A stretch of 64,000 nt of DNA from a phage, in assembly GCA_012416205.1 (NCBI GenBank), contig GCA_012416205.1_3033.2, one strand, 5' to 3'. The position numbers and the translations under genes were made by a program. Below, piece after piece: positions 18,807-36,596 of this stretch (its first letter is position 1; the number at the start of each line of letters is the position of its first letter). The notes under the pieces were generated by a model, which was not told the DNA's origin, searched no databases, and saw nothing but the letters and a program-made list of their open reading frames with translations.

Positions 18807-18810
18807 CAAT

Positions 18811-18828
18811 GGGGACCGAAAGGTCCCC
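18811..18828. terminator. Bidirectional hairpin GGGGACC-GAAA-GGTCCCC between 54 and alt.-3
   Basis: Perfect 7-bp stem with GAAA loop and flanking T-runs, between convergent stops. Confidence 0.55.
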
Positions 18829-18834
18829 ATATTT

Positions 18835-19125
18835 TTATTTACGGAATGAAATAAAAGCAGCAACTGAAGCAACTAAACTGTCTTCAATATAAACCTCAAT
18901 TTTTACCGGAGCTTCTGACTCAAATTTACCTGTTACTACACCTTGGAAAATACTTTCAGTCTGTTCTGGCTTTGAAAAATTTTCAGAAGGAAAAATTCCG
19001 AACTTTTTATCTGTTCCAAAAATTTTGATAAATTCATCGTAAACTGCTTCATTAAAAGCATTATCAGCAGGAATAACGCCTTCAACTACAAGTTCTTGAC
19101 CTAAAAAGCGCAAAGAAGATTTCAT
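18835..19125 (-). CDS. Hypothetical protein (T4 alt.-3 position)
   Basis: 96 aa ORF between gene 54 and the Alt paralogs. Confidence 0.6.
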   Translation of the reverse strand: MKSSLRFLGQELVVEGVIPADNAFNEAVYDEFIKIFGTDKKFGIFPSENFSKPEQTESIFQGVVTGKFESEAPVKIEVYIEDSLVASVAAFISFRK

Positions 19126-19133
19126 TTTGTGTT

Positions 19134-19186
19134 CCTCATGTTATGTCAGTAAGACTACTATAACACAACACGAGGGACTTGTAAAC
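19134..19186 (-). promoter_or_regulatory. Early-promoter-like GTTTAC(18)TATAGT element embedded in a 9-bp inverted repeat that includes the RBS (copy 1)
   Basis: 53-bp block repeated with one mismatch at 34953-35005; arms CCTC(G/A)TGTT and AACATGAGG flank the -10 element; 3' arm contains the GAGG Shine-Dalgarno. Confidence 0.5.
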
Positions 19187-21243
19187 TACATTTTGAACTT
19201 TTTAGACATTCCGTTGATGTTAACCAAAGAAGCCAAGATTTGAGAAACTTCGTTTTCCTCTTCTTTTGATTCTTCTACAAGGAATTGATTAAATCCAGCC
19301 ATTGGACGAACTTCACCAGTTTCCATTAGATGGTCGCCATCATATACCGATTCCTCTAATTGTTCAGAAGGAGGAACGATTGTACCTTCTATTAGATACT
19401 TGTTATAAGCAGTTTCTTTCATAAAGTACGTGCTCACTTTATTAATCTTCAGTAAAATTCCACGCGGTAGAATAACTTCAGCTTCTGATGGAAATCCTGA
19501 TAAATGACCTGGAACGATAACTTTGATTCGCTCAGCTCCTTTAATTACCATACCCACGCTAGTTTCAGCATCTTCATTAGCATATGTAGAATGACTACCC
19601 ATATGCATCAAATCTTCTGCATCAACGGAACCTTCTCCTTCGCCAGAAAATACTGCGCCGGAATCATCTAGAGCCATATAGTTTTTACCATGCTCACCGA
19701 AGATATTTGGTTTAAGCGATGTGGATACGAAGTTCTTGAAATAGAACATTTTATTTTCAATGTTATGACGCAAAGTTTTAAAGGTAACTTCTTGTCCACG
19801 GTAAAGTGTAGTTCCTGGAGGAAGAACTGAACCTTTAGCGAATGCAGAATCAAGCGTCTCAATATGTTTAATAGCTCGTTCCATATATTCTTCACGGGTA
19901 GAATCTGGTTTACCCAAAAGGAACGAGTTCATTTCAACATATGAATCTGCACAATAATCTTCAATTACATCAGACTCAGCCTGAGTTAATCCTTTTGGAG
20001 TTACTTCAGTACTTGCATATTCATATGCCTGAGCGGCAGATTCATTAATCAATTTATAAATGCCATTCATGACAAATTGAATAATAGCTGTCTTTTCATC
20101 TGGTGTAGCTTTAGAACCTTTAACTAAATCATTGATAATTTTCTTAATAACATCAAAGCTATTAGAAATATTAATGTCAGCAAGATCGCTTAAAATTTTA
20201 TCAGTTTTATAATCAAAGAATTCTTTATTCTTTAAATATTCTTGAGAACCTTGATATGTTATATCGCTCTGCAGCTTGATAGATGGATCGCGTAAACGTG
20301 CATGGGCCAATGCAATATGATTTCGGAAGTTTTCTAGTTCATAATCGTTAGATTTAAAACGAGAAGCACTTCTCATACCACCGATAGCTCCTTTGCTAAA
20401 GTTTGAACCAATCTGAATAACGCCAGAGTTCATCGGACCTTCTGCTTTATATACCGGAACTTTAGATTCAAACTCTTGATATTTCTTAGCAGCGAAGCTA
20501 TCACCCTGAAGTGAAGCATCGACAGTAGAATATTGAGCTTGTGCTGCTAATCGACGACTAATTTTAGTTTTCTGAATAACAGCTTGATCCGTGCGCTTAT
20601 CATTTTCTAAGGCAATAGAAGCAGCAACAGCAACAGCTTTAGGAACAGCATTACCTGTTTTAACATCCACATAAACATCACCAACCTTTGATTCAACTTT
20701 TGTGAATAACTCAGTTGAAATAGGAGGTACACCTGGAATGTCTTCTAAATTGGCATTTTTACGGTAAACCATAATATATGCATACTTTTTATCATAATCC
20801 CAGATTTCCTTTAAAAGAACATATCGACCTGCTCCTTTAGTACGTACTAAACGGTCAGCAATAACTTGCATTTGACGAGCTGCGCCATTTGTTTTACTTT
20901 TTAGTACGCGGAATAAGCATGCATCAATTTTATACTGTTTCATTGTTTGAAGAGCAGTATCAAAAACGGCATTAATGACACCAATTGGATTTCCACCTAA
21001 GTTTTTAAGTTTAACTAATGATAGTTTCTCATTGACACCTATCATTACGATATGCATCATTTTATCGCCTGGCTTAACGTTTTTATTCGTATCACCGCCA
21101 GAGGTGTATGTACAAAATCTAAATCCAGGAAGCACGCTTTCTTCACCGGCTTGAATAGCAAAAATTTGAGGTATTTTATGCTTAGGATTTAAGTTAACAA
21201 CCGGCGCCGAAGCGCCGTCAAATAATTCTGTAATAAGTTCCAT
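19186..21243 (-). CDS. Alt-like ADP-ribosyltransferase paralogue (T4 alt.-2 position)
   Basis: 685 aa; N-terminal ~220 aa and C-terminal domain (YRGQ, FVSTSL, EAEVILPRG: R-S-E ART motifs) parallel the adjacent alt product. Confidence 0.85.
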   Translation of the reverse strand: MELITELFDGASAPVVNLNPKHKIPQIFAIQAGEESVLPGFRFCTYTSGGDTNKNVKPGDKMMHIVMIGVNEKLSLVKLKNLGGNPIGVINAVFDTALQTMKQYKIDACLFRVLKSKTNGAARQMQVIADRLVRTKGAGRYVLLKEIWDYDKKYAYIMVYRKNANLEDIPGVPPISTELFTKVESKVGDVYVDVKTGNAVPKAVAVAASIALENDKRTDQAVIQKTKISRRLAAQAQYSTVDASLQGDSFAAKKYQEFESKVPVYKAEGPMNSGVIQIGSNFSKGAIGGMRSASRFKSNDYELENFRNHIALAHARLRDPSIKLQSDITYQGSQEYLKNKEFFDYKTDKILSDLADINISNSFDVIKKIINDLVKGSKATPDEKTAIIQFVMNGIYKLINESAAQAYEYASTEVTPKGLTQAESDVIEDYCADSYVEMNSFLLGKPDSTREEYMERAIKHIETLDSAFAKGSVLPPGTTLYRGQEVTFKTLRHNIENKMFYFKNFVSTSLKPNIFGEHGKNYMALDDSGAVFSGEGEGSVDAEDLMHMGSHSTYANEDAETSVGMVIKGAERIKVIVPGHLSGFPSEAEVILPRGILLKINKVSTYFMKETAYNKYLIEGTIVPPSEQLEESVYDGDHLMETGEVRPMAGFNQFLVEESKEEENEVSQILASLVNINGMSKKFKM

Positions 21244-21246
21244 GAT

Positions 21247-23340
21247 TTATCCTTGAACGAACTTGTAAGGCATGTTTGTAATATCTATGCAAGACGCAAT
21301 AATTCCAAGAGATGATTCTACTTTCTGTTTAACATTTGATGAAACAAATGATGCAAAGTCAACTCTGTCTTCTATTTCAATATCACCTGTCATTGCAACC
21401 AATTCACCAGTTTCCATTAAATGGTCTCCGTCATAGATTACCGATTCGGTGAGTTCTTCGGTGGTCATAACTTCAGCTTGAATGAGTTTTGTATTATTAG
21501 ACGTGGTTCCGTCATTATTAGAAGCATCAGTTATTTTATTAACTTTGACCATCAATCCGCGCGGTAGAATAACTTCAGCTTCTGTTGCTATTCCGAGATT
21601 TCCTGGATATACAACATTAACTTTATGAGCTCCATCAATTGCCCATCCTATTTGAACTTTAACGTATTCAGGATTTTCTTTATACGCTCTTATTTCGTTT
21701 GGATTAATAGTTATTCCTTCTTCATTTTTATCAACTGTTAATTCATTGCGAGCTTCTGGTTCTAAAAGACCAATACCAGCATGTGTAATTCCAAAACGTC
21801 CAAAAATGATAGGAGTTAAAGAAGTAGATACAAAATTTCTGAAGTAGAACACTTTATTTTTAACTAGTGCTTCGTATATAGGAGCAGTCATACTTTGAGC
21901 ACGATAAACTGTGATGCCTTCCGGTATGCGGTCACCATTTTCAAAAGCTGAATCTAAGTTATTTATAGCAGATTCAATTTCTTTTTCACTCATTACATCA
22001 TATCGTTCTGGATTGTAACGACCTAAAAGAAGATTATTGATGTCAGTATATCCTGAACCGCAATATTCTCTAATGCCACGCTTTTGTGATGGAGTATATT
22101 TAGAACCATCGCGGGCAATAGTAATATCAATCATTGGACCAGCACCAATTCCAGAAAAACTGTAAATCATTCGTTTGAGGAATTTAGTTTTTGCTGCGTT
22201 CCAGGAATTTTTAGTTATTTCTTCCCAGACTTCATCTGGTTGTCCTTTACGATTTTTATTATGATTAGCAAGCCATTTATCTTTATAATCTTCAAAGAAT
22301 TGATTTACAGCTGCTGCGTATTTCTCTAAACATTTTATTGAAGTAGTTGGTTCATTTTTAATTGCATTAAAAATTACTTCTTTAATTTTTTCTGAAACTT
22401 CACCGACTTGACTCATTGGAAAGAATTTATAATCATAGTGAAGTTCATCTGCCGTTCCTTCAGCAATAATTTTTGCTGCCTTTGTTTTAGAAGCTAATGA
22501 ATTAATTCCAATTTTCATTTCTTCTGCTTCGGGAATTAAAGGTGCAGTAGCTGGTTTATTAAAATTAGCTGCTGTAGATTCATACTTCTGGAATAATTCA
22601 CTTTCAAATCTAGAAGATTCCAATGACTGACTTTGTGCAATTGCTCTACGGGAAATTTTAACTTTAACGATTACAGCTTGGTCAGAACGTTTATCATTTT
22701 CTTGCGCAATAGATGCTGCAATTGCCTCATTTTTAGTTACTTGGGCTCCAGTATCTTTATTGATATAAACATCACCGACTTTCGATTCAACTTTAGTAAA
22801 GAGCTCGGTACTAATTTCCGGAACTCCTGGAATGTCTTCTAGTGATACATTTTTGCGATGTATAAGAATATATGCATACTTTTTATCATAATCCCAGAGT
22901 TCCTTAAGAAGGACGTATCTGCCACCTGAACGACTACGGATAAGTCTATCAGCAATAACTTGAATTTGTCGAGCTTGACCAGCGGTTTTAGACTTAAGAA
23001 TACGAAGCATACAAGCATCAATTTTATACTGACGCATTGTTTGCATTGCAACAGTAAAAACTGAATTGATATAATTAATTGGGCTTGGACCAAGACCTTT
23101 TAATTTAGCAATTGAACCTTTAGCAGTTAATGTAAAAGGAACAATATGCATCATTTTATCGCCCATCTTTAAATCGCGATTAGTATCACCTCCAGATGTA
23201 TAGGTACATAAACGAAAGCCTGGCTGTTCAATTGCATCATCAACGTGAACTGAAAAAATTTGCGGTATTTTCTTCTTTGGATTTAAGTTTGTAATCGGAA
23301 GAGTAGTATCTTCGTCAAATAATTCTGTAATAAGTTCCAT
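21247..23340 (-). CDS. alt: RNA polymerase ADP-ribosyltransferase Alt
   Basis: 697 aa from the second Met (better RBS spacing); recognisable Alt N-terminus MELITELFDEDTT; ART motifs YRAQ, FVSTSL, EAEVILPRG. Confidence 0.9.
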   Translation of the reverse strand: MELITELFDEDTTLPITNLNPKKKIPQIFSVHVDDAIEQPGFRLCTYTSGGDTNRDLKMGDKMMHIVPFTLTAKGSIAKLKGLGPSPINYINSVFTVAMQTMRQYKIDACMLRILKSKTAGQARQIQVIADRLIRSRSGGRYVLLKELWDYDKKYAYILIHRKNVSLEDIPGVPEISTELFTKVESKVGDVYINKDTGAQVTKNEAIAASIAQENDKRSDQAVIVKVKISRRAIAQSQSLESSRFESELFQKYESTAANFNKPATAPLIPEAEEMKIGINSLASKTKAAKIIAEGTADELHYDYKFFPMSQVGEVSEKIKEVIFNAIKNEPTTSIKCLEKYAAAVNQFFEDYKDKWLANHNKNRKGQPDEVWEEITKNSWNAAKTKFLKRMIYSFSGIGAGPMIDITIARDGSKYTPSQKRGIREYCGSGYTDINNLLLGRYNPERYDVMSEKEIESAINNLDSAFENGDRIPEGITVYRAQSMTAPIYEALVKNKVFYFRNFVSTSLTPIIFGRFGITHAGIGLLEPEARNELTVDKNEEGITINPNEIRAYKENPEYVKVQIGWAIDGAHKVNVVYPGNLGIATEAEVILPRGLMVKVNKITDASNNDGTTSNNTKLIQAEVMTTEELTESVIYDGDHLMETGELVAMTGDIEIEDRVDFASFVSSNVKQKVESSLGIIASCIDITNMPYKFVQG

Positions 23341-23363
23341 CATAGCCTCTCTAGTGTTTATTC

Positions 23364-23371
23364 TATTTATA
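23364..23371 (-). promoter_or_regulatory. Late promoter box TATAAATA (minus strand) upstream of alt
   Basis: Reverse complement TATAAATA about 20 bp upstream of the alt start. Confidence 0.55.
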
Positions 23372-23378
23372 AAATTAA

Positions 23379-23392
23379 AGGCCCGAAGGCCT
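23379..23392 (-). terminator. Hairpin GGCC-CGAA-GGCC upstream of the alt promoter
   Basis: Short GC inverted repeat directly after the stop of ORF 23393-23581. Confidence 0.4.
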
Positions 23393-23581
23393 TTAGTAAT
23401 CTAGTGGTAAGAGAGTACGATATATTTCAAACTTTGGTCCTTTTTCATAGGCATCAAATGTTTCTGTAAATTTATTATAAGCGTATGCATCTACAAATTC
23501 GAGAATGACTTGTGATACAGAAGTAGAAACATCTCCGCCTTCTTTTTGAGCAATGACAATTGTTTCTAAGTAAGCTTTCAT
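23393..23581 (-). CDS. Hypothetical 62-aa protein between alt and gene 30
   Basis: ORF overlapping the gene 30 stop by 4 bp. Confidence 0.5.
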   Translation of the reverse strand: MKAYLETIVIAQKEGGDVSTSVSQVILEFVDAYAYNKFTETFDAYEKGPKFEIYRTLLPLDY

Positions 23582-25041
23582 AAACCAGTTACCTCATGAA
23601 AATCACCAAATACATCCTCGAATGTATTAGCTTTAGTTTTATCTTCACGTAAACGAATCGCAATCGGAAGAAATAATTTAACGTAATCAGTGCGGCCATC
23701 AGATTTTAACCAACCGTTGCATTCGCACTCTAGAATTTTTCCAATATAATAATTTTGGTTTTCCATAATGCGAGTACGGTCAAGTTCATGTGATTTTACG
23801 CCGGCTTTGTCTTTTAAGCCTGAACCAGCATTTACTTTAATTTTTCCACACTCTGACTCAAGAATAAATCCACCTGCTTTAGTAGGGTCTTTACGGTGAG
23901 GATAAATTCCTACAATTTTTAAATCAACATCAATTACTTCTTTAAATTTATAGAGATTTTTTGAACGGGCATTTTCCCATAACCCATCAACGTTTTTGAG
24001 AATAATACCTTCAAGACCTTGATCAATATACTTTTTGTAAATTACCTTAGCTTCATCTAGGTTATTTACTACCTGGTTTTCAATTAAAATTACTTTATCA
24101 TAGCCTGATGTCATTTGTTCTAGTTTAGAAAAACGTACATCATACTTTAAACGAAATGCAGGAAGACCATATATTTCTACTAATGGAACATAATCCCAGA
24201 CCTGAAACTTCATGCATTGTGCTTCTTTTTCGGAAATGGTTCCCTTTAAAGATTTATTAGCGATTCCATTAGAAGCAGTACGTGATTCAGCTACTTCGAC
24301 GAATTCTTTAGCTTTACTAATTTCAGGATAAGCATTAAAAAGAAAATCTAGGCCTTCTGGCTCCTTTTTAACTTGCTCATGGTATACCAATTCGCCATCA
24401 ATTAACACACCTTCTGGATGAATCTGGCGGGCTTCAGCGGTCATTTTAATTAACTCTTCCTTAAGAAGATCTAATCCTAGATATTCATTACCAGCTCGTG
24501 ATAAAAGACGAACATCATCTAATTCATCACCTCTGACTTCAGCAAAGCACCGAGCTCCATCAGCTTTTAACTGGGCAAAAGCTGGAAATTTGATATTCTT
24601 ATTAATGCCTTTTTCATCATAAGAACTTGCAAGCATTTGAGGTTGTTCAGGAATTAAACCTGGCCAAACTTTGTTTGCAATAGATACTGAAGCACCGCAT
24701 TCAAGGTCTCGCATCATCACTCGACGCAAAACTTCAACATCATCTTTTTTACCATCGGTGATATATCCAATTAATTCCTCAATTGCCGCATTTCCAGTCA
24801 ATTTCCGAGTAGCTAACGTGAATTCAATGAAGTCAAGCATATCGGTAAGAGTCAACATTCCAAAACTCTGGGTAGCAATACCCGGTTTAGGCCATTTCTT
24901 GATATAATACTGTAACCCACGAGAATAAGTCAGACGATATACTCGTTTAAGCAATTCATTATCTTTGTTCTTTTCAAGAATTGCTTGCTTCTGCTTAGTT
25001 GAACCAATAGATGCTATTTCGTTCAGAATTTTAAGAATCAT
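23578..25041 (-). CDS. 30: ATP-dependent DNA ligase gp30
   Basis: 487 aa (T4 DNA ligase length); adenylation motif KADGAR. Confidence 0.93.
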   Translation of the reverse strand: MILKILNEIASIGSTKQKQAILEKNKDNELLKRVYRLTYSRGLQYYIKKWPKPGIATQSFGMLTLTDMLDFIEFTLATRKLTGNAAIEELIGYITDGKKDDVEVLRRVMMRDLECGASVSIANKVWPGLIPEQPQMLASSYDEKGINKNIKFPAFAQLKADGARCFAEVRGDELDDVRLLSRAGNEYLGLDLLKEELIKMTAEARQIHPEGVLIDGELVYHEQVKKEPEGLDFLFNAYPEISKAKEFVEVAESRTASNGIANKSLKGTISEKEAQCMKFQVWDYVPLVEIYGLPAFRLKYDVRFSKLEQMTSGYDKVILIENQVVNNLDEAKVIYKKYIDQGLEGIILKNVDGLWENARSKNLYKFKEVIDVDLKIVGIYPHRKDPTKAGGFILESECGKIKVNAGSGLKDKAGVKSHELDRTRIMENQNYYIGKILECECNGWLKSDGRTDYVKLFLPIAIRLREDKTKANTFEDVFGDFHEVTGL

Positions 25042-25307
25042 TGTTCATCCTTTAGAGTTTGGTTTACAGCTCTATTATAAATCAATTCATCATTAAGCTC
25101 AGTCAAAGACCTGTGGTACGTGGTTCTAACTTTATTTCCTTGCATCCAGTGCTTGACGTAAATGAAACCTTGCTCTACACATTTTTTAAAAATTCGTTCG
25201 TCTTTTTGAGCTCGGAATTCTGGATTGCATCTAAAAAATTGATTTACGTGACCGTAATCACGTGTAGTATTACCTTCATTTTCATAAATAGTATGAACAA
25301 CAAACAT
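25038..25307 (-). CDS. Hypothetical protein (T4 30.1 position)
   Basis: 89 aa ORF, 4-bp overlap with gene 30. Confidence 0.5.
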   Translation of the reverse strand: MFVVHTIYENEGNTTRDYGHVNQFFRCNPEFRAQKDERIFKKCVEQGFIYVKHWMQGNKVRTTYHRSLTELNDELIYNRAVNQTLKDEQ

Positions 25308-26143
25308 TAAAATGCTCCTTGAAAAATATTATCACCACTAGTAGGTCTATTATACAAATACTCTATGCCACCAGGTTTAATATAGTTCCATGTCTGAAAC
25401 GGATGTGTCTGATATGGATGATATGGATTATAAGGATTAAATCCAGGAGTTCTCCAGGTAGTGTTCCAAGGAAAAGAATCGTTTTTGATCATCTTCTCAA
25501 TTACATCTTTTATAACTTTTTCACTATCAAAACTTTCTTTATTTTCCTTCGATGGAAAAAGCTTATTCTCGACATCATTCCATGTATAAACTCGCTGTGC
25601 AGTTTTTGGAATACTGTCACGCTCCCCTCGAGCCATCCAATAAACAGGAACATTTAATATTTCACTCGCGTGATCGCAGTGGTGAGCGAGATCGTCAATA
25701 TAACAAATTACGTTATATTTCTCTTTTGCCTTTTTGAACAACTCTTCTTTTGAAGAATCATGACCACACATCAATACTTCTGAGAAGGCACCAGGAAAAA
25801 GAGCATTCAAATTAAATTGACGATTCAGCAGAGCGTCAATAGAATCACCCAATGCTGTAACAGCTACAAAATTATAATCTTCTTTTAATTTGTTAATTAC
25901 ACACAGGGCATCTTTATATGGAGACAAGTAACGAATAAAATCTGAACGATTGTATTTTTCAATTAACTTGACGCCAAGTTCTTCATCACAATTAAAAAGT
26001 TTACCTGGAGAAATAAATTTCTCATCTTGGATCATTTTTAAAATATGTTCCAACGGAAGATTATATTTCTGGGCAAAATAAGGAAGTCCTGATTGCCAGC
26101 TTAAACATACTCCATCAATATCAGTTAAAATAGTAGGCTTCAT
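25307..26143 (-). CDS. HAD-like hydrolase (T4 30.2 position)
   Basis: 278 aa; N-terminal LTDIDGV (HAD motif I DxDG[VT]) and downstream YIDD. Confidence 0.6.
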   Translation of the reverse strand: MKPTILTDIDGVCLSWQSGLPYFAQKYNLPLEHILKMIQDEKFISPGKLFNCDEELGVKLIEKYNRSDFIRYLSPYKDALCVINKLKEDYNFVAVTALGDSIDALLNRQFNLNALFPGAFSEVLMCGHDSSKEELFKKAKEKYNVICYIDDLAHHCDHASEILNVPVYWMARGERDSIPKTAQRVYTWNDVENKLFPSKENKESFDSEKVIKDVIEKMIKNDSFPWNTTWRTPGFNPYNPYHPYQTHPFQTWNYIKPGGIEYLYNRPTSGDNIFQGAF

Positions 26144-26604
26144 AGAGAGTCTCTTAATAGGTTTAACACATCAATAAATTCAGCTTCGGTTAGTATTGTA
26201 TCATCTTTTGTTAGACCACTAGCCATGCTGTGCTTCAAAACTTTTCCTTTCGAGGCTAGTAATGCATCACGAAAGCCCTTGTTTTGAATCGCTGCTTCAA
26301 AATATGCATTTGTGTATAATTCTTTCCACGCCGGGGAGTATCTTGAAAACGGAACTCCGAGCCAGAAGAGGGTCCCACGGTCCTGAGCTCTTGCATAAGA
26401 CCTTCCAGCTTGCTGTGCGGCAAGCCCGGATAACCCAAATATACGACGTTGTTGTTCAACATTTTTCACCTTACACCCTTGGAGGAATCCTTCGAGACCT
26501 CCAAATTGAATACCATCCATGACGAAAGGCCATTGGGCGAAATTACTTAATGCACATGATGGCCACCTAAAATTGCTTCTAATCTCTAACTCAGACATTT
26601 TCAA
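26140..26604 (-). CDS. NADAR/YbiA-like (DUF1768) domain protein (T4 30.3 position)
   Basis: 154 aa; LSNFAQWPF...DGIQFGGLEGFLQGCKV matches the SNF...P...EH.FQ..K core pattern of YbiA/NADAR proteins. Confidence 0.7.
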   Translation of the reverse strand: MKMSELEIRSNFRWPSCALSNFAQWPFVMDGIQFGGLEGFLQGCKVKNVEQQRRIFGLSGLAAQQAGRSYARAQDRGTLFWLGVPFSRYSPAWKELYTNAYFEAAIQNKGFRDALLASKGKVLKHSMASGLTKDDTILTEAEFIDVLNLLRDSL

Positions 26605-26797
26605 TGCTTATAATTTCAACATCAGCCCAATGACCATAGCAAGGAAGACGAAATTCAACTGGCCAGTTAGGGTCCTTTTCTAATATAATAGACTTAACTT
26701 GTGGTTCTTCATGTTCATCAGTATATGGATTTTTATCTGTTACTTTATATGTGACCTTAATGTACTGAATTCCAAAAATCTTATTAATTATATTCAT
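26591..26797 (-). CDS. Hypothetical protein (30.x cluster)
   Basis: 68 aa ORF, tightly packed in the 30.x operon. Confidence 0.45.
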   Translation of the reverse strand: MNIINKIFGIQYIKVTYKVTDKNPYTDEHEEPQVKSIILEKDPNWPVEFRLPCYGHWADVEIISIENV

Positions 26798-26991
26798 ACT
26801 AATTCCTTTAATCCGTAAATAGGAGATAATTCATCACCCATGCGAAGGTCTTCATTTCCATCTACCCAGGAAACAATATAAGCCTCTTTTATTTGAATAC
26901 CACTCCATTTAAATGGAGGTAGAACCTTAGAAATTAATCCAGGTATACCAATTCCCTTTAATTCAACAGTTTGACCTAAAAAGAATTTCAT
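26794..26991 (-). CDS. Hypothetical protein (30.x cluster)
   Basis: 65 aa ORF, 4-bp overlaps with neighbours. Confidence 0.45.
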   Translation of the reverse strand: MKFFLGQTVELKGIGIPGLISKVLPPFKWSGIQIKEAYIVSWVDGNEDLRMGDELSPIYGLKELV

Positions 26992-27278
26992 TAGAACCTC
27001 ATCTGAAAACCGTGCGATTTAACATTACCGCCGCCAATATCAGAAATGTTAATTTCACGCGCAATTGAAGGGTCAATGTCAATTTCGCGATTGAGTTTAG
27101 TGATAGCTAAAGTATCGCGCCCATTTACAGTACGAAACTCTAAAGGACAAACCACATCAACGTAGTTTTTAATCGATTCGCTAGTAGGTTGCAAATGTGC
27201 AGGAAGGTCTTTAGGCGCCTTTGAGAAAACTACTTCGCAGAAGTTTTTACGGGTATCAAAATAAGTAGTCATAAACAT
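26991..27278 (-). CDS. Hypothetical protein (30.x cluster)
   Basis: Start moved to the internal ATG with a GAGGA RBS; the longer track ORF would run through the hairpin at 27297-27310. Confidence 0.5.
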   Translation of the reverse strand: MFMTTYFDTRKNFCEVVFSKAPKDLPAHLQPTSESIKNYVDVVCPLEFRTVNGRDTLAITKLNREIDIDPSIAREINISDIGGGNVKSHGFQMRF

Positions 27279-27296
27279 AATATTTTCCTCAGTAAG

Positions 27297-27310
27297 GGGC
27301 CGAAGCCCCC
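27297..27310 (-). terminator. Hairpin GGGGC-CGAA-GCCCC
   Basis: Perfect 5-bp GC stem between two 30.x ORFs. Confidence 0.4.
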
Positions 27311-27319
27311 TCATTTATT

Positions 27320-27697
27320 TTAAATATCAAATTCATTAAGAACTACATCAAAGATTGCTTCAAGATGCTCAGGTTTAGCTCTGTTACTCAGAATATGACG
27401 AATCCAAGTTTTAACCAAAAGCTTGCGATTAGCACCATTCCAGCAAGGATGAGTCCCTAAATCACGTTGACGAAAATCATCATCCAGAGCGATTTTGAAG
27501 TTTGAACCTTCCATTGTGATTGAAACCGTGATTCCATTTTCAAATCGCATATAAACGTAATTAGGAGTCATATACTGTTCAATTTCGCATACTGATCCAT
27601 TTTGATGTTTCCAAAGGCAAATAGTATCAATAGAACCTGCAATACCATTAGAAACATATTTACGTTCAAAGTTGATGTAGTTCATTTTATTCTCCAA
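27320..27697 (-). CDS. Hypothetical protein (30.x cluster)
   Basis: 125 aa ORF. Confidence 0.5.
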   Translation of the reverse strand: MENKMNYINFERKYVSNGIAGSIDTICLWKHQNGSVCEIEQYMTPNYVYMRFENGITVSITMEGSNFKIALDDDFRQRDLGTHPCWNGANRKLLVKTWIRHILSNRAKPEHLEAIFDVVLNEFDI

Positions 27698-27752
27698 GAT
27701 GTTTAATTGCGGTACAGGTATATAATATCATATCCTGTACCAAAGTAAACAA

Positions 27753-28085
27753 TTATTTTACTACTTTCCAATGCTGCATGTCAAGTTTACCAACTTTTTT
27801 CATCTTCTCAATTAAGCGTTCGGCACGTTGGCGAGCTGTAACATAATACCATTCACCTAATTCATTTTGTTCAATTTTTCCAACGATTACTGTATTCAAT
27901 TCATAAATCCAACCAGTAAAGAAATTATGAACTTGAATTGTAAAGGTGAAATCTGTTCCCATACCTTCTGTTGTTTCTACTTCAATAATATCACCTTCAA
28001 CTGCCATTAAGAACCACATAGTTTCATCATATTTACCATTGAAGCATTTAGTTTTAACTGCAGCGTTCAGATTAATCGTTTTCAT
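27753..28085 (-). CDS. Hypothetical protein (30.x cluster)
   Basis: 110 aa ORF with an early-promoter-like element upstream. Confidence 0.5.
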   Translation of the reverse strand: MKTINLNAAVKTKCFNGKYDETMWFLMAVEGDIIEVETTEGMGTDFTFTIQVHNFFTGWIYELNTVIVGKIEQNELGEWYYVTARQRAERLIEKMKKVGKLDMQHWKVVK

Positions 28086-28112
28086 TTTATTCTCCTTTGT
28101 TTGTGTAAGATA

Positions 28113-28190
28113 ATACTATCACAAAGGAGCTATACTGTAAACAACTTTATGCAATCTTTGGAAAATAAAAAAGGACTCCCGAAGGAGTCC
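28113..28190 (-). promoter_or_regulatory. Terminator hairpin (GGACTCC-CGAA-GGAGTCC) followed by AT-rich UP-like tract and GTTTAC(18)TAGTAT early-promoter-like element
   Basis: Same architecture as the cassettes at 44723-44804 and 61033-61113. Confidence 0.45.
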
Positions 28191-28195
28191 TCAAC

Positions 28196-28414
28196 TTATG
28201 CTTTCTGCTTACCAAAACGAGAAGCATCATCTCGAAGAACCGCACGTGCTCGGCGCATGATCTTCTCAACAGTTTGATTGATACGAGAGTTCGACCCACG
28301 CTTGTAGCCAGCGCGTTTAGAATCACCAACTTTCTTTTCAACTGCTTTCTTTGCTTTAGCTTGTTTTGCCATTATAAATTCTCTTTTAAATGAAAATGCA
28401 GGACTTATTGGCAT
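28196..28414 (-). CDS. Small lysine/arginine-rich basic protein of unknown function
   Basis: Core MAKQAKAKKAVEKKVGDSKRAGYKRGSNSRINQTVEKIMRRARAVLRDDASRFGKQKA; start is either 28414 or 28372. Confidence 0.5.
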   Translation of the reverse strand: MPISPAFSFKREFIMAKQAKAKKAVEKKVGDSKRAGYKRGSNSRINQTVEKIMRRARAVLRDDASRFGKQKA

Positions 28415-28616
28415 TGCCTGCGCAAGCCCTCAAGGGGAACATAGGTTTTTGGATATTTAACGACCAGGATAACCATAAACCCGTCATCATTCACATTCAA
28501 GAGGTACACCGTAAAACTGCCGGGGTCTTAAAACTATAATGATTCGCAAATCATTAATCAGACAGTTCGACGGCTCCTCGATTTAGCTCACACTAAGGCA
28601 GTGAATCTCCAATAAA

Positions 28617-28865
28617 TTACTTCAGTGTTACCACAAAGTGACGAACTGCTTTTCGTGCAGCAGAAGCCAGAGGCTTAGCATATTTAAGTTCATCTTTTTC
28701 CTGAAGCTCAGCAGCTAATGCAGTTTGAGCAGGATTCAGATGTTTGAAATAACGCAGGATTTCAAGAGCTTCGGCTTCAACATCAATAGATGCGCCATAG
28801 TTTTCGTGACCATTATTCCATGCGTTTCGTTGCAGTTCAAGAGCGTGTTGTAATTGTTTAATCAT
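28617..28865 (-). CDS. rIII: Lysis inhibition accessory protein rIII
   Basis: 82 aa, T4 rIII length; located just upstream of gene 31 as in T4. Confidence 0.85.
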   Translation of the reverse strand: MIKQLQHALELQRNAWNNGHENYGASIDVEAEALEILRYFKHLNPAQTALAAELQEKDELKYAKPLASAARKAVRHFVVTLK

Positions 28866-29012
28866 TTAAAAATTCTCGTTAGAGATTAAAACTCGGTAGT
28901 CACGTTCTTCTGAATTTCATCTTCTTTCGACAGATCTCTCAGTTGTAGACTACCACATAGAATTGTTCGGTTAACTTATTATTCCGACACCCAATTCATA
29001 TTATTATTTATA

Positions 29013-29348
29013 TCACTTATAAAGACACGGAATAGCTTTATAGTGACAAGTAACGAATTTTTGTTTAATTTCTTTTGGCTGCTTAAGACCCAGAGCTACA
29101 AAAGGATGCGGAACATTTCGAATTTGACCAACTGGAAGAGAAGTCAAATCACCAACTTCGCAGAAACCTTCAGGAACATCAGGACCGACAGAGTGAACTA
29201 CACATAGTTCAGGAACTTCACCTTGAACACGTTTACCGATAATAAGTCCTGATTCTGTAACTTCTTCATCACCGGCTTGTGCAGGTTCAGAAACTAAAAT
29301 AACATATTCACCGACAGCACGAATTGGTAGCTGTTGTACTTCAGACAT
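29013..29348 (-). CDS. 31: GroES-like co-chaperonin gp31
   Basis: 111 aa (T4 gp31 length); between rIII and 31.1/cd. Confidence 0.9.
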
Positions 29349-29404
29349 CGTTTTTCCTTTTTGTTAACAGATGAATTAATAATAACAAATAATTCTTAAA
29401 GCAT

Positions 29405-29713
29405 TTATTTACCAATAAATTGGAGTAAATGCTCAACTTTCATACCATTAACAGAAATCAATTTGTCAATAGAAAAACCTCGCCATGCACCAAGCTCAAC
29501 ATCAAATACTGGAATCATGTCAGTAGATTCTTTCCGAGTAGATTCAGTCAATTTACCAGTTTGCATGGTTGGCATAAAGTCTGCATCGCGAGTACCTTTC
29601 ATAGTACGAATAGTACCATCAGACTTTTCAAAAACTACGTTTGAAACACCCATGGACAGTTTAGTTTTCAAAATTTCACGAATTGCTACTTTCTGCTCAG
29701 TTGTCAGTTTCAT
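29405..29713 (-). CDS. Hypothetical protein (T4 31.1 position)
   Basis: 102 aa ORF. Confidence 0.55.
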   Translation of the reverse strand: MKLTTEQKVAIREILKTKLSMGVSNVVFEKSDGTIRTMKGTRDADFMPTMQTGKLTESTRKESTDMIPVFDVELGAWRGFSIDKLISVNGMKVEHLLQFIGK

Positions 29714-29950
29714 TTATTTACCTATCACAGTTTTAATATGAGTTGTTCCACGTTCTTTAAGGGTGGAAAGTAATTTTTGGCATTTTTCTAAATCAGATTT
29801 CCAACTATATGGTCTATCAATACTAGTCCAATCAGTTTTATAATACTGTTTCCATTTAGAGAAAAAATACTTCTTATACTCTACAGCAAATGAAATGTTC
29901 TCGTTAGAATAAGAACTAATTGCTGTGAGCTGTACCAAACGAAATTTCAT
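29714..29950 (-). CDS. Hypothetical protein (T4 31.2 position)
   Basis: 78 aa ORF. Confidence 0.5.
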   Translation of the reverse strand: MKFRLVQLTAISSYSNENISFAVEYKKYFFSKWKQYYKTDWTSIDRPYSWKSDLEKCQKLLSTLKERGTTHIKTVIGK

Positions 29951-30531
29951 TATTCACCACAGAATTCGTTGATATTTTCCCAGTTTAACTTATTCAAGTT
30001 TTTCTTAGGAACATTAAACACTTCAATACCCGCATTTCGCAGAATATCATCCCAGCCAGGTTTATTTTTATCATATGTTTCACAATAAACCAGCTTTTTA
30101 ATACCAGATTGAGCTATCGCTTTTGCACAATCTGGGCAAGGAGAAAGTGTTACATACATAGTAGCACCTTCAATAGAAGAACCATTTCGTGCAGCAAACA
30201 AAATTGCATTTAGTTCAGCATGAATTTCATTTTTAGACGACCATTCCGAGTGAGCGCTACGGTGTTCTTTCGCCAAGACAAAGCGATCAGTTGAACCAAA
30301 TGATACGCATTCAGGCTTATGGCCTTGAATGATAGTATGTTTAGGCTTATTCAGCAACCAACCTTGCTCAGCAGCATAATCACAACAGTTCACACCACCA
30401 GCAGGTGAACCATTATATCCGGTAGAAATAATACGTCCATTCTTTTCAATTACTGCTCCTACCTTCCAGGAGCAACATTTTGATTCTTGTGATACTAAAT
30501 ATGCAATTTGAAGTACTGTACTCGCTTTCAT
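29950..30531 (-). CDS. cd: dCMP deaminase
   Basis: 193 aa; cytidine/dCMP deaminase zinc motifs HAELNAI and PCPDCAKAI. Confidence 0.92.
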   Translation of the reverse strand: MKASTVLQIAYLVSQESKCCSWKVGAVIEKNGRIISTGYNGSPAGGVNCCDYAAEQGWLLNKPKHTIIQGHKPECVSFGSTDRFVLAKEHRSAHSEWSSKNEIHAELNAILFAARNGSSIEGATMYVTLSPCPDCAKAIAQSGIKKLVYCETYDKNKPGWDDILRNAGIEVFNVPKKNLNKLNWENINEFCGE

Positions 30532-30866
30532 TTCATAATCACCAGATAAGCAGATTTAGCAGTTTCAACACGATAAATTTCGTGACGAAGTTTAGTTATA
30601 CTTTTAATAACAGAACTAATTATATTCTGCCCATCTTTAAAGCGGTTTTTCTTATCAATAAAAATTGCACCAGCCATCTTTTTGTGAAGCTCAACTGGAT
30701 ACTTCGTCACAATAATAGCATCATACACAGAAGGATGAATACTATTCACTAGAGTGTCATTCATTAAAGTTATTCTAATGAACTGTGCTGTGTCAGAGTC
30801 AAGCGCTCTATGATCGCCAGTATCATTTTCAAGACAATTATCAATTATATCAGTTAAATTCATCAT
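30528..30866 (-). CDS. Hypothetical protein (cd.1 position)
   Basis: 112 aa ORF. Confidence 0.5.
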   Translation of the reverse strand: MMNLTDIIDNCLENDTGDHRALDSDTAQFIRITLMNDTLVNSIHPSVYDAIIVTKYPVELHKKMAGAIFIDKKNRFKDGQNIISSVIKSITKLRHEIYRVETAKSAYLVIMK

Positions 30867-31099
30867 AGTACGCCATACACCCTTTGTGCTTCAACTAATC
30901 CATCAAAATCCAATTTGAGATGTGTTATTTGGTCACCATCACCTGGATTCACAATTACTAATACTGAACGAGGAGTTTCGGTAATAACACGAACCGATGT
31001 TTCTGGAAATCGTTCAGAAACCTTATTTACCAATTCCTGAGCAAATAGTTTAACTTTTTCTTGGAATTCTTTAACAGTAATCGGTTTTTCACTTAGCAT
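30863..31099 (-). CDS. Hypothetical protein (cd.2 position)
   Basis: 78 aa ORF. Confidence 0.5.
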   Translation of the reverse strand: MLSEKPITVKEFQEKVKLFAQELVNKVSERFPETSVRVITETPRSVLVIVNPGDGDQITHLKLDFDGLVEAQRVYGVL

Positions 31100-31620
31100 G
31101 TTGATCCCAGCTCCTTACTTTCAACGTTTTTAACTAATTTGACAGAAACTAATTCAGCATCTTGAGTAATCATTACCGGGCCTTCTTCATACTCTTCAAG
31201 ATATTCTAGAGCTTTCTTTTTAGCTTCTTCCTTCGTATCAGTTTGAGCATAGATATAGAACATACAACCAGTAATACCTACTACTTTCCACTTAATTTCT
31301 TTATCAGTTTTAATTTCAAATTTACTGATAGAGTCATCTTTTTGAACTTCTTCGAAAAAATAATATTCTGACATATAAGTAATTGAAAATAACGGGCTAT
31401 CTTTATAAGATTCGCCCATTACATCAACAGCTTTATACCAGCAGTCATCAATTTCACGTTTAATGCTAATAACATTTTTCGCAGAATCTATTTTTACTTT
31501 AAATGAATTTTCCCCAATAAACTTGGCAATTCGTTTATTAGCCCCGCAAGTTTCATTAAAAATATCTTTATATCCAGCTTTAAAGCGATAAACCTTATCT
31601 TCTTCAAACCATTTGCTCAT
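31093..31620 (-). CDS. Hypothetical protein (cd.3 position)
   Basis: 175 aa ORF. Confidence 0.5.
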   Translation of the reverse strand: MSKWFEEDKVYRFKAGYKDIFNETCGANKRIAKFIGENSFKVKIDSAKNVISIKREIDDCWYKAVDVMGESYKDSPLFSITYMSEYYFFEEVQKDDSISKFEIKTDKEIKWKVVGITGCMFYIYAQTDTKEEAKKKALEYLEEYEEGPVMITQDAELVSVKLVKNVESKELGSTC

Positions 31621-31682
31621 TTCAATTTCCTCATTTGTTTTGGTAGAGCTATAATATCACAACTCTACCGTAAAGTAAACTG

Positions 31683-31958
31683 TTAAATTGCCTTGAATTC
31701 TGATGTCTGTGATTCAAAACGAATATCGCCTTTGATGACTAGCTCAGCATCAAGACCGAATACGACAATGATATGTGCGGAACCTGGATACAGCGTAATG
31801 GCAATAGAATCAACCTGGTCTGGAAGCAAAGTATTCAATACATGAGTCACTTGAGCATGAATTCGAAGCTCGGCTGCGTTATCAAGCTTTTCAAACATAT
31901 TATTAGCGATAATTTGGCTAAACACTACTTCTACGATTTTAGAATAAGTCGGAAACAT
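31683..31958 (-). CDS. Hypothetical protein (cd.4 position)
   Basis: 91 aa ORF. Confidence 0.5.
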   Translation of the reverse strand: MFPTYSKIVEVVFSQIIANNMFEKLDNAAELRIHAQVTHVLNTLLPDQVDSIAITLYPGSAHIIVVFGLDAELVIKGDIRFESQTSEFKAI

Positions 31959-31960
31959 AT

Positions 31961-32153
31961 TTACCTCACATAATTTTCTTCAAGCCAATCAATAACATCC
32001 AACGCATTATCAAAAGTTGAACCATCTACTTTATCTTCTGTTTCATAATCAAGAACATCTAAGCCTACTCTTCCATCAACAATAGGCCATAAACAAAATA
32101 GATATTTCTTTTCTTTTTCAATTTTATCACAAAGACGATAAATCTTTTCTATA

Positions 32154-32161
<8 letters not shown>
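31961..32161 (-). CDS. Hypothetical protein (cd.5 position)
   Basis: 66 aa ORF. Confidence 0.45.
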
Positions 32162-33576
<1,415 letters not shown>

Positions 33577-33579
33577 TTA

Positions 33580-33810
33580 TTATTTCTCAACCAATGATTG
33601 AATATAATCATGCAAGTCTTTAGATGCTTTACCCCACTTATTTTGGTATTCATTTTTAAGATTAGCCCGAGATTGAGCTAATAAAACATCATTAGTTGGA
33701 GGTAAAGATTCTAATCGTTGAATCTGGCGTCCATAAATCATTGCAGCCATCTCGGATTCATAAATCAATCCTTTGAGATGTTCAAATTGATGCCATGAAA
33801 TCATTTGCAT
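33580..33810 (-). CDS. Hypothetical protein
   Basis: 76 aa ORF. Confidence 0.45.
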   Translation of the reverse strand: MQMISWHQFEHLKGLIYESEMAAMIYGRQIQRLESLPPTNDVLLAQSRANLKNEYQNKWGKASKDLHDYIQSLVEK

Positions 33811-34100
33811 TTATCCTCTTTTAGCTCTTGACGATAATAACATATCATAGTTTTTTGGTCATGTACATATCGTTTTACATCATTAAGCCAAATACGAAAT
33901 TCCTGGGAATCTTCAAATGGCATACCGACCCAAGCTTTACCATCAATAACTTTAACTTGCCAAGATAGTTTAGCTTCATCATATGACTTTATTTGTACAG
34001 GCCAATTAGGATGAACTGTTTCTTTCTTTACTTCTAGAGGCTTTGTCGAACAACCAACTAGAAGACCAATAGATAATATTACTGCTGATAGTTTAATCAT
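33801..34100 (-). CDS. Outer-membrane spanin lipoprotein (Rz1-like; T4 pseT.2 position)
   Basis: Signal peptide with lipobox LLVGC-S; 99 aa; immediately downstream of, and overlapping, the i-spanin-like gene. Confidence 0.7.
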   Translation of the reverse strand: MIKLSAVILSIGLLVGCSTKPLEVKKETVHPNWPVQIKSYDEAKLSWQVKVIDGKAWVGMPFEDSQEFRIWLNDVKRYVHDQKTMICYYRQELKEDKCK

Positions 34101-34450
34101 TTAGAAAGGTCCTGGATGTCTTCTGCGAACTTGTTGAAGGAGTTGTTGATTTGTTTTTCAACCAATCCTGGCTTATGAGCCACCACATCCGCCTTCTTTG
34201 CGTCTTTGCGCAGTTTTTCATTTTCACGCTCAATAGCAGCAATTGCCTCACGATTTTTATTATTCATCGCATCAATATAATTATACTGAATTCGCAAATT
34301 ATTTAATGCTAAAGCGTTTTCATTGGCCGTTTTTGTAATTTCTACGACAGACGTTTCTAATCTTTCAATTTTATTTTTTAAAATTAAAGAAGTTCCGCCC
34401 AATGCAATTACAATTAATAGCAAGCCTGCTGTCGTATTACTTAATTGCAT
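34097..34450 (-). CDS. Inner-membrane spanin (Rz-like; T4 pseT.3 position)
   Basis: N-terminal transmembrane helix (LLLIVIALGGTSLIL) followed by a charged coiled-coil segment; 117 aa. Confidence 0.7.
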   Translation of the reverse strand: MQLSNTTAGLLLIVIALGGTSLILKNKIERLETSVVEITKTANENALALNNLRIQYNYIDAMNNKNREAIAAIERENEKLRKDAKKADVVAHKPGLVEKQINNSFNKFAEDIQDLSK

Positions 34451-34944
34451 AAAGTTTTAATAACCTCTATAATATCGTCTTGAGAAAGACCGTTAATTAA
34501 AATATGATGTTCAGCCGGAGATTTAGAAATTTTAAAGCACGCCGCAACATCTTCTGCCATATCCGATGCGCTACGATTTGGATTACTAATTCCAAGACGA
34601 TGCTTTCCTGTCAAAGGATTAACGATGATATAGCATTTGCAGCTATTGATATGAACATTAGGTTGAGTCTGATTAATAAACACTTCACAATCATACTTAG
34701 CGAGTTGATTTTCTAAAAAGACTTTCATCTCCTCAACCGCATCAGGAAGCATATCACGGGCTTGCTCAAGACGACGATTTCGATATTCTTTAATGGTCGT
34801 TTTCCGCTTGACTTGCTTAGCTAAATCTTTCTTAAGATCGGTGATATATCCAACTCGACGATTTCCTTTGAATACAGAAATCCCATCTGTAGTATCACCG
34901 TATGCTTCAACGACCATTTCAGTAGTAATAAGCTGCAAATCCAT
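34441..34944 (-). CDS. alc: Alc (transcription terminator of cytosine-containing DNA)
   Basis: 167 aa from the second Met; position between pseT.x and rnlA as in T4. Confidence 0.8.
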   Translation of the reverse strand: MDLQLITTEMVVEAYGDTTDGISVFKGNRRVGYITDLKKDLAKQVKRKTTIKEYRNRRLEQARDMLPDAVEEMKVFLENQLAKYDCEVFINQTQPNVHINSCKCYIIVNPLTGKHRLGISNPNRSASDMAEDVAACFKISKSPAEHHILINGLSQDDIIEVIKTLCN

Positions 34945-34952
34945 CATAAAGT

Positions 34953-35005
34953 CCTCATGTTATGTCAGTAAGACTACTATAACACAACATGAGGGACTTG
35001 TAAAC
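34953..35005 (-). promoter_or_regulatory. Early-promoter-like GTTTAC(18)TATAGT element embedded in a 9-bp inverted repeat that includes the RBS (copy 2, upstream of alc)
   Basis: 52 of 53 bp identical to 19134-19186; arms CCTCATGTT / AACATGAGG. Confidence 0.5.
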
Positions 35006-35008
35006 AGC

Positions 35009-36596
<1,588 letters not shown>

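Follow-up and report, generated by a model that had tools for sequence, protein, structure and literature searches.

We analyzed a window of 64,000 nucleotides of phage DNA (contig GCA_012416205.1_3033.2 of GenBank assembly GCA_012416205.1) and found that it carries two nearly identical 54-bp cassettes, one in front of alt.-3 and one in front of alc. Each is probably an early-promoter cassette of the promoter-early stem-loop (PeSL) type, whose stem-loop would shield translation of the downstream gene from transcripts reading through from upstream; folding, covariation among relatives, and the published temporal classes of the genes support this mechanism. Each copy would be a T4-type early (sigma-70) promoter-plus-leader module in which the spacer of the promoter also serves as an anti-Shine-Dalgarno strand. 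When initiated within the module, at a predicted +1 about 7 nt after TATAGT, the RNA would contain the 3' arm only, so its ribosome-binding site (RBS) would be open and it could be translated immediately after infection. RNA coming from upstream, namely, late alt transcripts entering alt.-3 and delayed-early or later rnlA transcripts entering alc, would carry both arms. Such RNA would fold into an 18- to 22-bp hairpin with the Shine-Dalgarno (SD) sequence buried, and the downstream gene would therefore be translationally insulated from the upstream units. The start site, the actual read-through, and the effect on translation are what we infer.

The window belongs to a Tequatrovirus, with Serratia phage PhiZZ30 as the top match at 100% identity. 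A preliminary description of this DNA reported a 53-bp block present twice with a single mismatch. A pattern search found exactly two matches to that block, at 19134-19186 and 34953-35005, with none expected from 100 shuffles. The two copies and the one mismatch stand; the length is 54 bp, with one further identical base, the A that follows GAGG on the minus strand, so that copy 1 spans 19133-19186 in the gap between an alt-like gene and alt.-3 and copy 2 spans 34952-35005 in the gap between rnlA and alc. On the minus strand, along which both copies are oriented, the sole difference is a G at 19171 in the alt.-3 copy and an A at 34990 in the alc copy. The copies share 98% identity across the 54 nt, whereas other pairs among 10 early-promoter-like sites in the window have a median identity of 46% and a maximum of 63%. 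The copies lie 15.8 kb apart, and each occupies a whole intergenic gap. Base 1 of copy 1 is the G of the stop codon TAG of the alt-like gene (19188-19186), so the two overlap, and GAGG at its other end lies 8 nt before the alt.-3 ATG. At the second locus the rnlA stop codon TAA (35011-35009) is 3 nt before the cassette, and the alc ATG follows GAGG by 5 nt. Among ∼50,700 phage records searched by blastn, the cassette was found at two places per genome in ∼500 Tequatrovirus records, and T4 itself has both copies.

Read along the minus strand, the cassette consists of G-TTTACA, 17 nt, TATAGT preceded by an extended -10 TGn, a 19-nt leader, and GAGG. The promoter proposed earlier as GTTTAC, 18 nt, and TATAGT is thus the same element in another register. 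A motif scan placed the -35 hexamer TTTACA at 19180-19185 in copy 1 and 34999-35004 in copy 2, and the -10 hexamer TATAGT at 19157-19162 and 34976-34981; TGn in copy 1 is at 19163-19165. TTTACA-17-TATAGT with TGn agrees with the sigma-70 consensus at 10 of 12 positions and has one mismatch to TAYWAT, and some Tequatrovirus alt.-3 copies have TATAAT in place of TATAGT. From the sequence, transcription is predicted to start at an A 7 nt past the -10 element (19150 and 34969). No promoter feature is annotated at either cassette site in the GenBank and RefSeq records of T4, and a literature search found no paper mapping start sites genome-wide in T4.

The inverted repeat had been described as two 9-bp arms. 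Folding of the RNA gives a longer structure: 14 bp (cassette bases 12 to 25 with 40 to 53), a 2-nt bulge, 4 bp, and the loop GUCU. The 5' arm, CCUCGUGUUGUGUU, lies in the promoter spacer (19162-19175 and 34981-34994) and contains the anti-SD CCUC; in copy 2 it extends to 34999 through AAGUCC/GGACUU. The 3' arm, GACAUAACAUGAGG, runs from the leader to the SD GAGG, at 19134-19147 with the SD at 19134-19137 in copy 1 and at 34953-34966 with the SD at 34953-34956 in copy 2. In the fold, the -10 element is at the top of the hairpin, and the SD forms the last four base pairs at its base. The hairpin has a dG of -23.0 kcal/mol (z = -4.8) in the alt.-3 copy and -24.8 kcal/mol (z = -3.9) in the alc copy. 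The base that differs between the copies forms a G-U pair at alt.-3 and an A-U pair at alc, not a G-C pair turned into G-U as first thought, and G is the commoner base at both loci in the sampled relatives.

The earlier proposal that read-through RNA buries the RBS and that own-promoter RNA leaves it open is supported by folding with and without the 5' arm: the SD is buried in the predicted folds that contain this arm and in no others. In the predicted read-through fold, the SD is paired along all of its four bases. An RNA begun at the predicted +1 (cassette base 37) retains the 3' arm only and folds into no significant structure (z of ∼0). By partition function, opening the SD costs 7.2 kcal/mol in read-through RNA versus 1.2 kcal/mol in RNA from the predicted +1 at alc, and 11.2 versus 3.2 kcal/mol at alt.-3. 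Translational coupling to the upstream gene looks unlikely, as the upstream stop codons are 11 to 16 nt before the anti-SD, presumably too far for a terminating ribosome to open the stem. The RegB cleavage signal GGAG is absent from both leaders.

Compensatory changes in T4-like relatives had been set beforehand as a check on the pairing, and they are found upstream of alc. Seven other lineages (six named genera of Tevenvirinae and one unclassified Klebsiella phage, one sequence each; eight lineages with Tequatrovirus) have GTTTACA followed by a spacer arm that pairs with the SD-containing leader, in sequences that differ from one another. The helix between anti-SD and SD is 9 bp in Dhakavirus Bp7 and Roskildevirus Cronus and 11 bp in Kanagawavirus CIP9, where it includes a G-rich SD, and in the unclassified Klebsiella phage HMGUkp2, where it includes the SD. 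The arms are UCUCCAUUUGGUUGUGU and ACACCAACCAAAUGGAGA in Karamvirus RZH, UCCUCAUCAG and CUGAUGAGGA in Jiaodavirus Mineola, and UCCUCAUUUCGUUGUGG and CACUAACGAAAUGAGGA in Winklervirus CHI14. Duplexes of cognate arms average -20.8 kcal/mol and those of noncognate arms average -12.5 kcal/mol; the cognate mean was not attained in any of 20,000 permutations. We then aligned the arms only, using 10 sequences (five Tequatrovirus rows plus RZH, Mineola, CHI14, HMGUkp2, and CIP9; Bp7 and Cronus, which MAFFT gapped, were left out). In this alignment of the six lineages alignable without gaps, 90% of the cells are paired versus 68.9 ± 2.8% in shuffles, and both sides have changed at 9 of the 14 pairs. 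The covariation score is 0.60 versus 0.22 in shuffles (0 of 500 reach 0.60), and slid registers score at most 0.18.

From the covariation it is clear that the structure is under selection, though not for what, and two other uses of the stem have to be weighed here. It could serve RNA stability or processing, as a 3'-end protector of alt or rnlA mRNA or as a site for a double-strand-specific nuclease; a long, stable stem exactly at a cistron boundary would suit either role. Such an element leaves unexplained, however, that the 3' arm always ends in the SD and that the 5' arm always lies just upstream of the predicted start, where it would be missing from own-promoter RNA, and we regard it as quite improbable. 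Alternatively, the inverted repeat could act as DNA, as a protein operator (for example, in the shutoff of early promoters), a cruciform, or a recombination site, with the RNA fold as a by-product. The arms do flank the -10 element, the Watson-Crick stems in other lineages can form on either strand with equal ease, and the authors who defined PeSLs speculated about a DNA-binding recombination protein (PMC2839356). But the arms covary rather than being conserved, which is unexpected for a sequence-specific protein site, and the 12- to 24-nt loops are poor for cruciform extrusion. G-U pairs distinguish RNA-level from DNA-level structure by strand asymmetry, a test that is informative in Tequatrovirus only: its stems have two or three G-U pairs, which turn into A-C mismatches in the antisense strand, and folding of the sense strand is favored by ∼5 kcal/mol, a preference seen there only. 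A role as DNA is, in our estimate, very improbable.

Published temporal classes bear on the proposed insulation, and the early RNA class of alc and alt.-3 lends indirect support to activity of the cassette promoters. In T4, alc has early RNA and early protein (PMC9697503, text and supplements 4 and 6), as does alt.-3 (PMC9697503). Both the RNA and the protein of alt are late (PMC9697503), and rnlA combines early RNA with late protein (PMC9697503) and is classed as delayed-early (PMC3014915). In the window, a late-promoter motif, TATAAATA, is found upstream of the alt genes at 23364-23371 on the minus strand. The terminator scan listed no terminator-like site between alt or rnlA and the cassette behind it. 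Because the first listed site, a hairpin in the gap between alt.-3 and gene 54 (18809-18830, both strands), is past alt.-3, late alt transcripts are expected to include alt.-3, just the setting where an SD-masking hairpin would matter. From gene order, rnlA transcripts are predicted to run straight into copy 2.

Two observations concern the upstream ends of these units. Directly before the late-promoter motif is a terminator-like hairpin (23376-23395, minus strand), which makes a compact terminator-then-late-promoter junction before the first alt gene. Upstream of rnlA, at 36160-36188 on the minus strand, a MotA-box-like ATGCTTCCA, 12 nt, and TGG-TACTAT follow the pattern of a T4 middle promoter; a promoter for rnlA/63 is not in the table of identified T4 middle promoters (PMC2988021).

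The stem-loop could also be a terminator or attenuator for alt or rnlA transcripts, with the SD overlap being incidental; one PeSL stem-loop of RB49/phi1 cut downstream lacZ about as much as rrnB T1 (PMC2839356). The nucleotides after the stem speak on both sides: 5 of 8 are U in the alc copy (UUUAUGAU) and in CHI14 (UUCAUUAU), but the alt.-3 copy and six of the seven other-lineage alc hairpins have A-rich tails with one to three U in 8 nt. Neither cassette site is in the consensus terminator scan. The identity of the copies stops exactly at the SD, so the tail is outside the conserved unit, and the SD is within the stem in all eight lineages, whereas the window promoters at 31679 and 27749 leave it alone. 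We consider a terminator with incidental SD overlap unlikely, while noting that terminator and insulator functions are not mutually exclusive and can coexist. An intrinsic (Rho-independent) terminator, in which a U tract directly follows a G+C-rich stem with a short loop, was in particular rejected, with A-rich tails in 7 of 9 sequences and no entry in the terminator scan.

The two loci differ in their history. At the alt-alt.-3 junction, five other genera (Gaprivervirus, Dhakavirus, Mosigvirus, Marfavirus, and Karamvirus) have an early promoter of a different type, with a mini-hairpin in the spacer (CAC-AAGGA-GTG) and the SD unpaired. Because these five genera differ at alt.-3, parsimony suggests that alc is the ancestral site of the anti-SD module and that a copy of it replaced the alt.-3 promoter in the stem lineage of Tequatrovirus; most likely, then, the cassette at alt.-3 in Tequatrovirus derives secondarily from the one at alc. 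The direction of copying, from alc to alt.-3, is our deduction from these sequence comparisons. The ends of the identical block fall on elements common to both promoter types, GTTTACA and ACATGAGGA, which agrees with homologous exchange over short stretches, the mode suggested for PeSLs. In the scheme we propose, a module ancestral in Tevenvirinae at alc would have been copied over an older alt.-3 promoter in the Tequatrovirus ancestor, with GTTTACA and ACATGAGGA as the junctions.

Concerted evolution of the copies, a further candidate, was unsupported: T2 carries five changes in its alt.-3 copy and two in its alc copy, of which one is common to both, and the copies of another genome (L009/L007) have no substitution in common. 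Among the 15 locus-specific Tequatrovirus variants sampled (six at alc and nine at alt.-3), all three stem substitutions in alc copies (C13T, C15T, and G16A) preserve pairing, as do C15T, G16A, and G40A in alt.-3 copies. In the alt.-3 copy of SHFML-26, G50A completes a C-G to U-G to U-A swap at one pair.

These variants bear on a neutral explanation, under which recombination between early promoters would have left the duplication behind as a neutral by-product and the pairing would have no selected function at either site. In its favor, <50 bp of homology suffices for recombination in T4 (cited in PMC2839356), some pair-breaking changes are tolerated at alt.-3, and alc of Mosigvirus lacks SD pairing. 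Against these stand the covariation at alc across eight lineages, the pair-preserving and compensatory changes within Tequatrovirus, and the retention of both copies in ∼500 genomes, and we think neutrality very improbable.

Several points count against the insulating stem that we favor. The pair-breaking changes that the alt.-3 copy tolerates are C12A, G29A (which creates TATAAT), and G40T. The covariation alignment leans toward structure, its register having been set from each sequence's own helix and its loops replaced by GAAA. Run on the full-length regions upstream of alc, plain MAFFT/RNAalifold missed the helix, having misaligned the 3' arms. Each of the other lineages is represented by one sampled sequence, and their stems are almost all Watson-Crick, so that sense and antisense strands fold equally well. 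Mosigvirus alc does without SD pairing, apparently without harm, and the moderately U-rich tails of the alc copy and CHI14 make some termination possible.

The phages without the pairing at alc are of several kinds. Mosigvirus RB69 has a small hairpin wholly within the spacer of alc (ACACC/GGTGT), and its SD is free. The RB69 alc leader, AACAACACGAGG (locus L027, 340-412), complements the T4-type 5' arm almost perfectly (-20.6 kcal/mol); it looks like an orphaned 3' arm remaining after a promoter swap. Upstream of alc, Gaprivervirus TH40 (locus L029, 290-405) differs in context and has no recognizable -35/anti-SD module, and in Escherichia phage 212 (H164) the Alc match is in two pieces, which suggests an insertion or rearrangement at the alc junction in Gaprivervirus. 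SD pairing at alc was not seen in more distant phages (Acinetobacter and Aeromonas). The lineage diversity described here was drawn from the annotated phage collection; IMG/VR and JGI metagenome scans gave 5, 5, and 8 loci, all from close relatives, and an Rfam search gave nothing above noise.

The cassette is a variant of two known T4-type regulatory designs. The first is the PeSL of T4-type phages (Arbiol et al. 2010, PMC2839356; Comeau et al. 2014, PMC4122927), laid out as stop codon, AT-rich stretch, -35, -10, stem-loop at a variable position, SD, and ATG (PMC2839356, PMC4122927). The PeSL stem-loop is mostly between the boxes or overlaps the -10, and the class has been extended to the T4/PST pair (PMC2839356, PMC4122927). 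Like a PeSL, the cassette lies between a stop codon and an ATG and has a sigma-70-like early promoter (the PST/T4 consensus is TTTACW-N17-TAYWAT), a stable stem-loop that reaches from the spacer over the -10 to the leader, and a 3'-terminal SD. As to the AT-rich stretch, A+T makes up 75% of the 20 nt before the cassette at alt.-3 but 50% at alc, in both cases within the upstream coding sequence. Like PeSLs, which have been implicated in exchange between loci, related copies precede unrelated genes, and signs of exchange are seen here as well: the promoter type at alt.-3 differs between Tequatrovirus and five other genera, at RB69 alc the spacer appears swapped with the 3' arm kept, and the break in homology between T4 and the window falls close to the alt.-3 cassette. 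The two part ways in function. The PeSL papers see a terminator or attenuator and a recombination substrate, and the word "translation" is absent from the 2010 paper (PMC2839356); in the cassette, the 3' arm is the leader plus SD, the tail is neither conserved nor U-rich, and the arms covary across genera. In addition, its copies are separated by those 15.8 kb and flank essential genes, not ORFans.

The second design is that of T4 e, soc, 49, and I-TevI, in which SD-masking hairpins enclose a late promoter (PMC3014915). In both, the structure is conserved in relatives (here in eight lineages at alc) and has a promoter within it; as in the known cases, the SD of the cassette is predicted to be in a helix in the long RNA, and RNA from the promoter itself would lack the 5' strand and be translated. 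The geometry of the cassette, its -10 at the top of the hairpin and its predicted +1 at base 37, fits a start inside the structure. The known hairpins, however, use a late promoter (TATAAATA) and silence early or middle RNAs, whereas the cassette has an early sigma-70 promoter and would silence RNAs that are late (alt) or delayed-early and later (rnlA); its 5' arm, moreover, is the promoter spacer itself. The motif TATAAATA is absent from the cassette, which is not a strict member of the e/soc/49/I-TevI group.

Outside phages, a comparable principle is reportedly at work in the fold-back inhibition of IS10/Tn10 attributed to Davis, Simons, and Kleckner in 1985, where RNA entering from outside is said to pair a segment lying before the element's start site with the RBS, and the promoter-proximal RNA alone is translated. 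That system differs in belonging to a transposon rather than a phage and in having neither a temporal program nor a duplicated cassette.

If the proposed insulation is true, it would hold immediate-early proteins such as Alc to the first minutes of infection despite the later-expressed genes directly upstream, with no predicted terminator between those genes and alc or alt.-3 behind them. It would give a different function to PeSL stem-loops, until now taken as terminators and recombination sites, and the cassette pair would be a concrete case of promoter-module replacement between loci. The 54 bp would also form a compact part combining a strong promoter with a read-through-proof RBS.

Universal pairing of spacer with leader in the early promoters of the window was rejected: it is strong at 5 of the 10 early-promoter-like sites, with the other 5 at background. 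Besides the two cassettes, three further modules (28085-28141, 27685-27749, and 31620-31679, all on the minus strand) have an inverted repeat between the spacer and the segment after the -10 (-13.8 to -15.1 kcal/mol), and in each of them the cognate arm is the top-ranked of nine. In the module before gene 30.8 (28141), CUCCUUUGUG pairs with CAAACAAAGGAG, and the SD is buried too. In the modules upstream of 30.7 (27749) and of a 175-amino-acid (aa) open reading frame (ORF) (31679), the 3' arm comes right after the -10, and the SD is untouched.

More broadly, and only tentatively, some early promoters of Tevenvirinae may be self-insulating modules, with a spacer complementary to their own leader and, in at least three window modules (alc, alt.-3, and 30.8), to the SD, so that foreign transcripts would be shut and own transcripts open. 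Many PeSL stem-loops might then be insulators, not terminators, and the modules might move by conversion, anchored where their -35 and SD elements are alike; the transfer from alc to alt.-3 would be an example.

The genes around the cassettes, all on the minus strand, were identified by homology to annotated T4-like records, which confirmed the alt-like, alt.-3, rnlA, and alc assignments. The 96-aa product of alt.-3 (18835-19125) is 100% identical to T4 Alt.-3, and alc (34441-34947) encodes a 168-aa inhibitor of host transcription, a protein encoded in roughly 1,100 records. The gene rnlA (gene 63) spans 35009-36133; its ATG at 36133 was set by the length of the T4 gene, 1,125 nt, and the ORF list gives an upstream GTG at 36169 instead. 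Two tandem alt-like ADP-ribosyltransferase genes lie at 19186-21243 and 21247-23343. Such tandem full-length alt paralogues are present in the window, in T2, and in most Tequatrovirus records; in T4, alt is accompanied by the fragments alt.-1 and alt.-2. The homology of T4 and the window breaks ∼19 bp upstream of the alt.-3 cassette, and in T4 (locus L015, 1066-3503) the annotated alt.-2 frame enters the cassette and stops at a TAG inside TATAGTAG; ribosomes there, if any, would therefore cross the 5' arm.

Elsewhere, Mosigvirus ST0 (L024, 1181-1243) and phiEC1 (L026, 1199-1262) have a sequence partly related to the cassette, 86% identical to it from the -10 through GAGGAACACAAAATG. It precedes a 66-aa ORF beside ndd and has its own spacer/leader hairpin, GTAGGA/TCCTAC, which excludes the SD. 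The 175-aa ORF behind the 31679 promoter (31093-31620, minus strand) has no tblastn match in the corresponding region of T4 (122-141 kb) and, by this comparison, is a variable gene within an otherwise collinear block.

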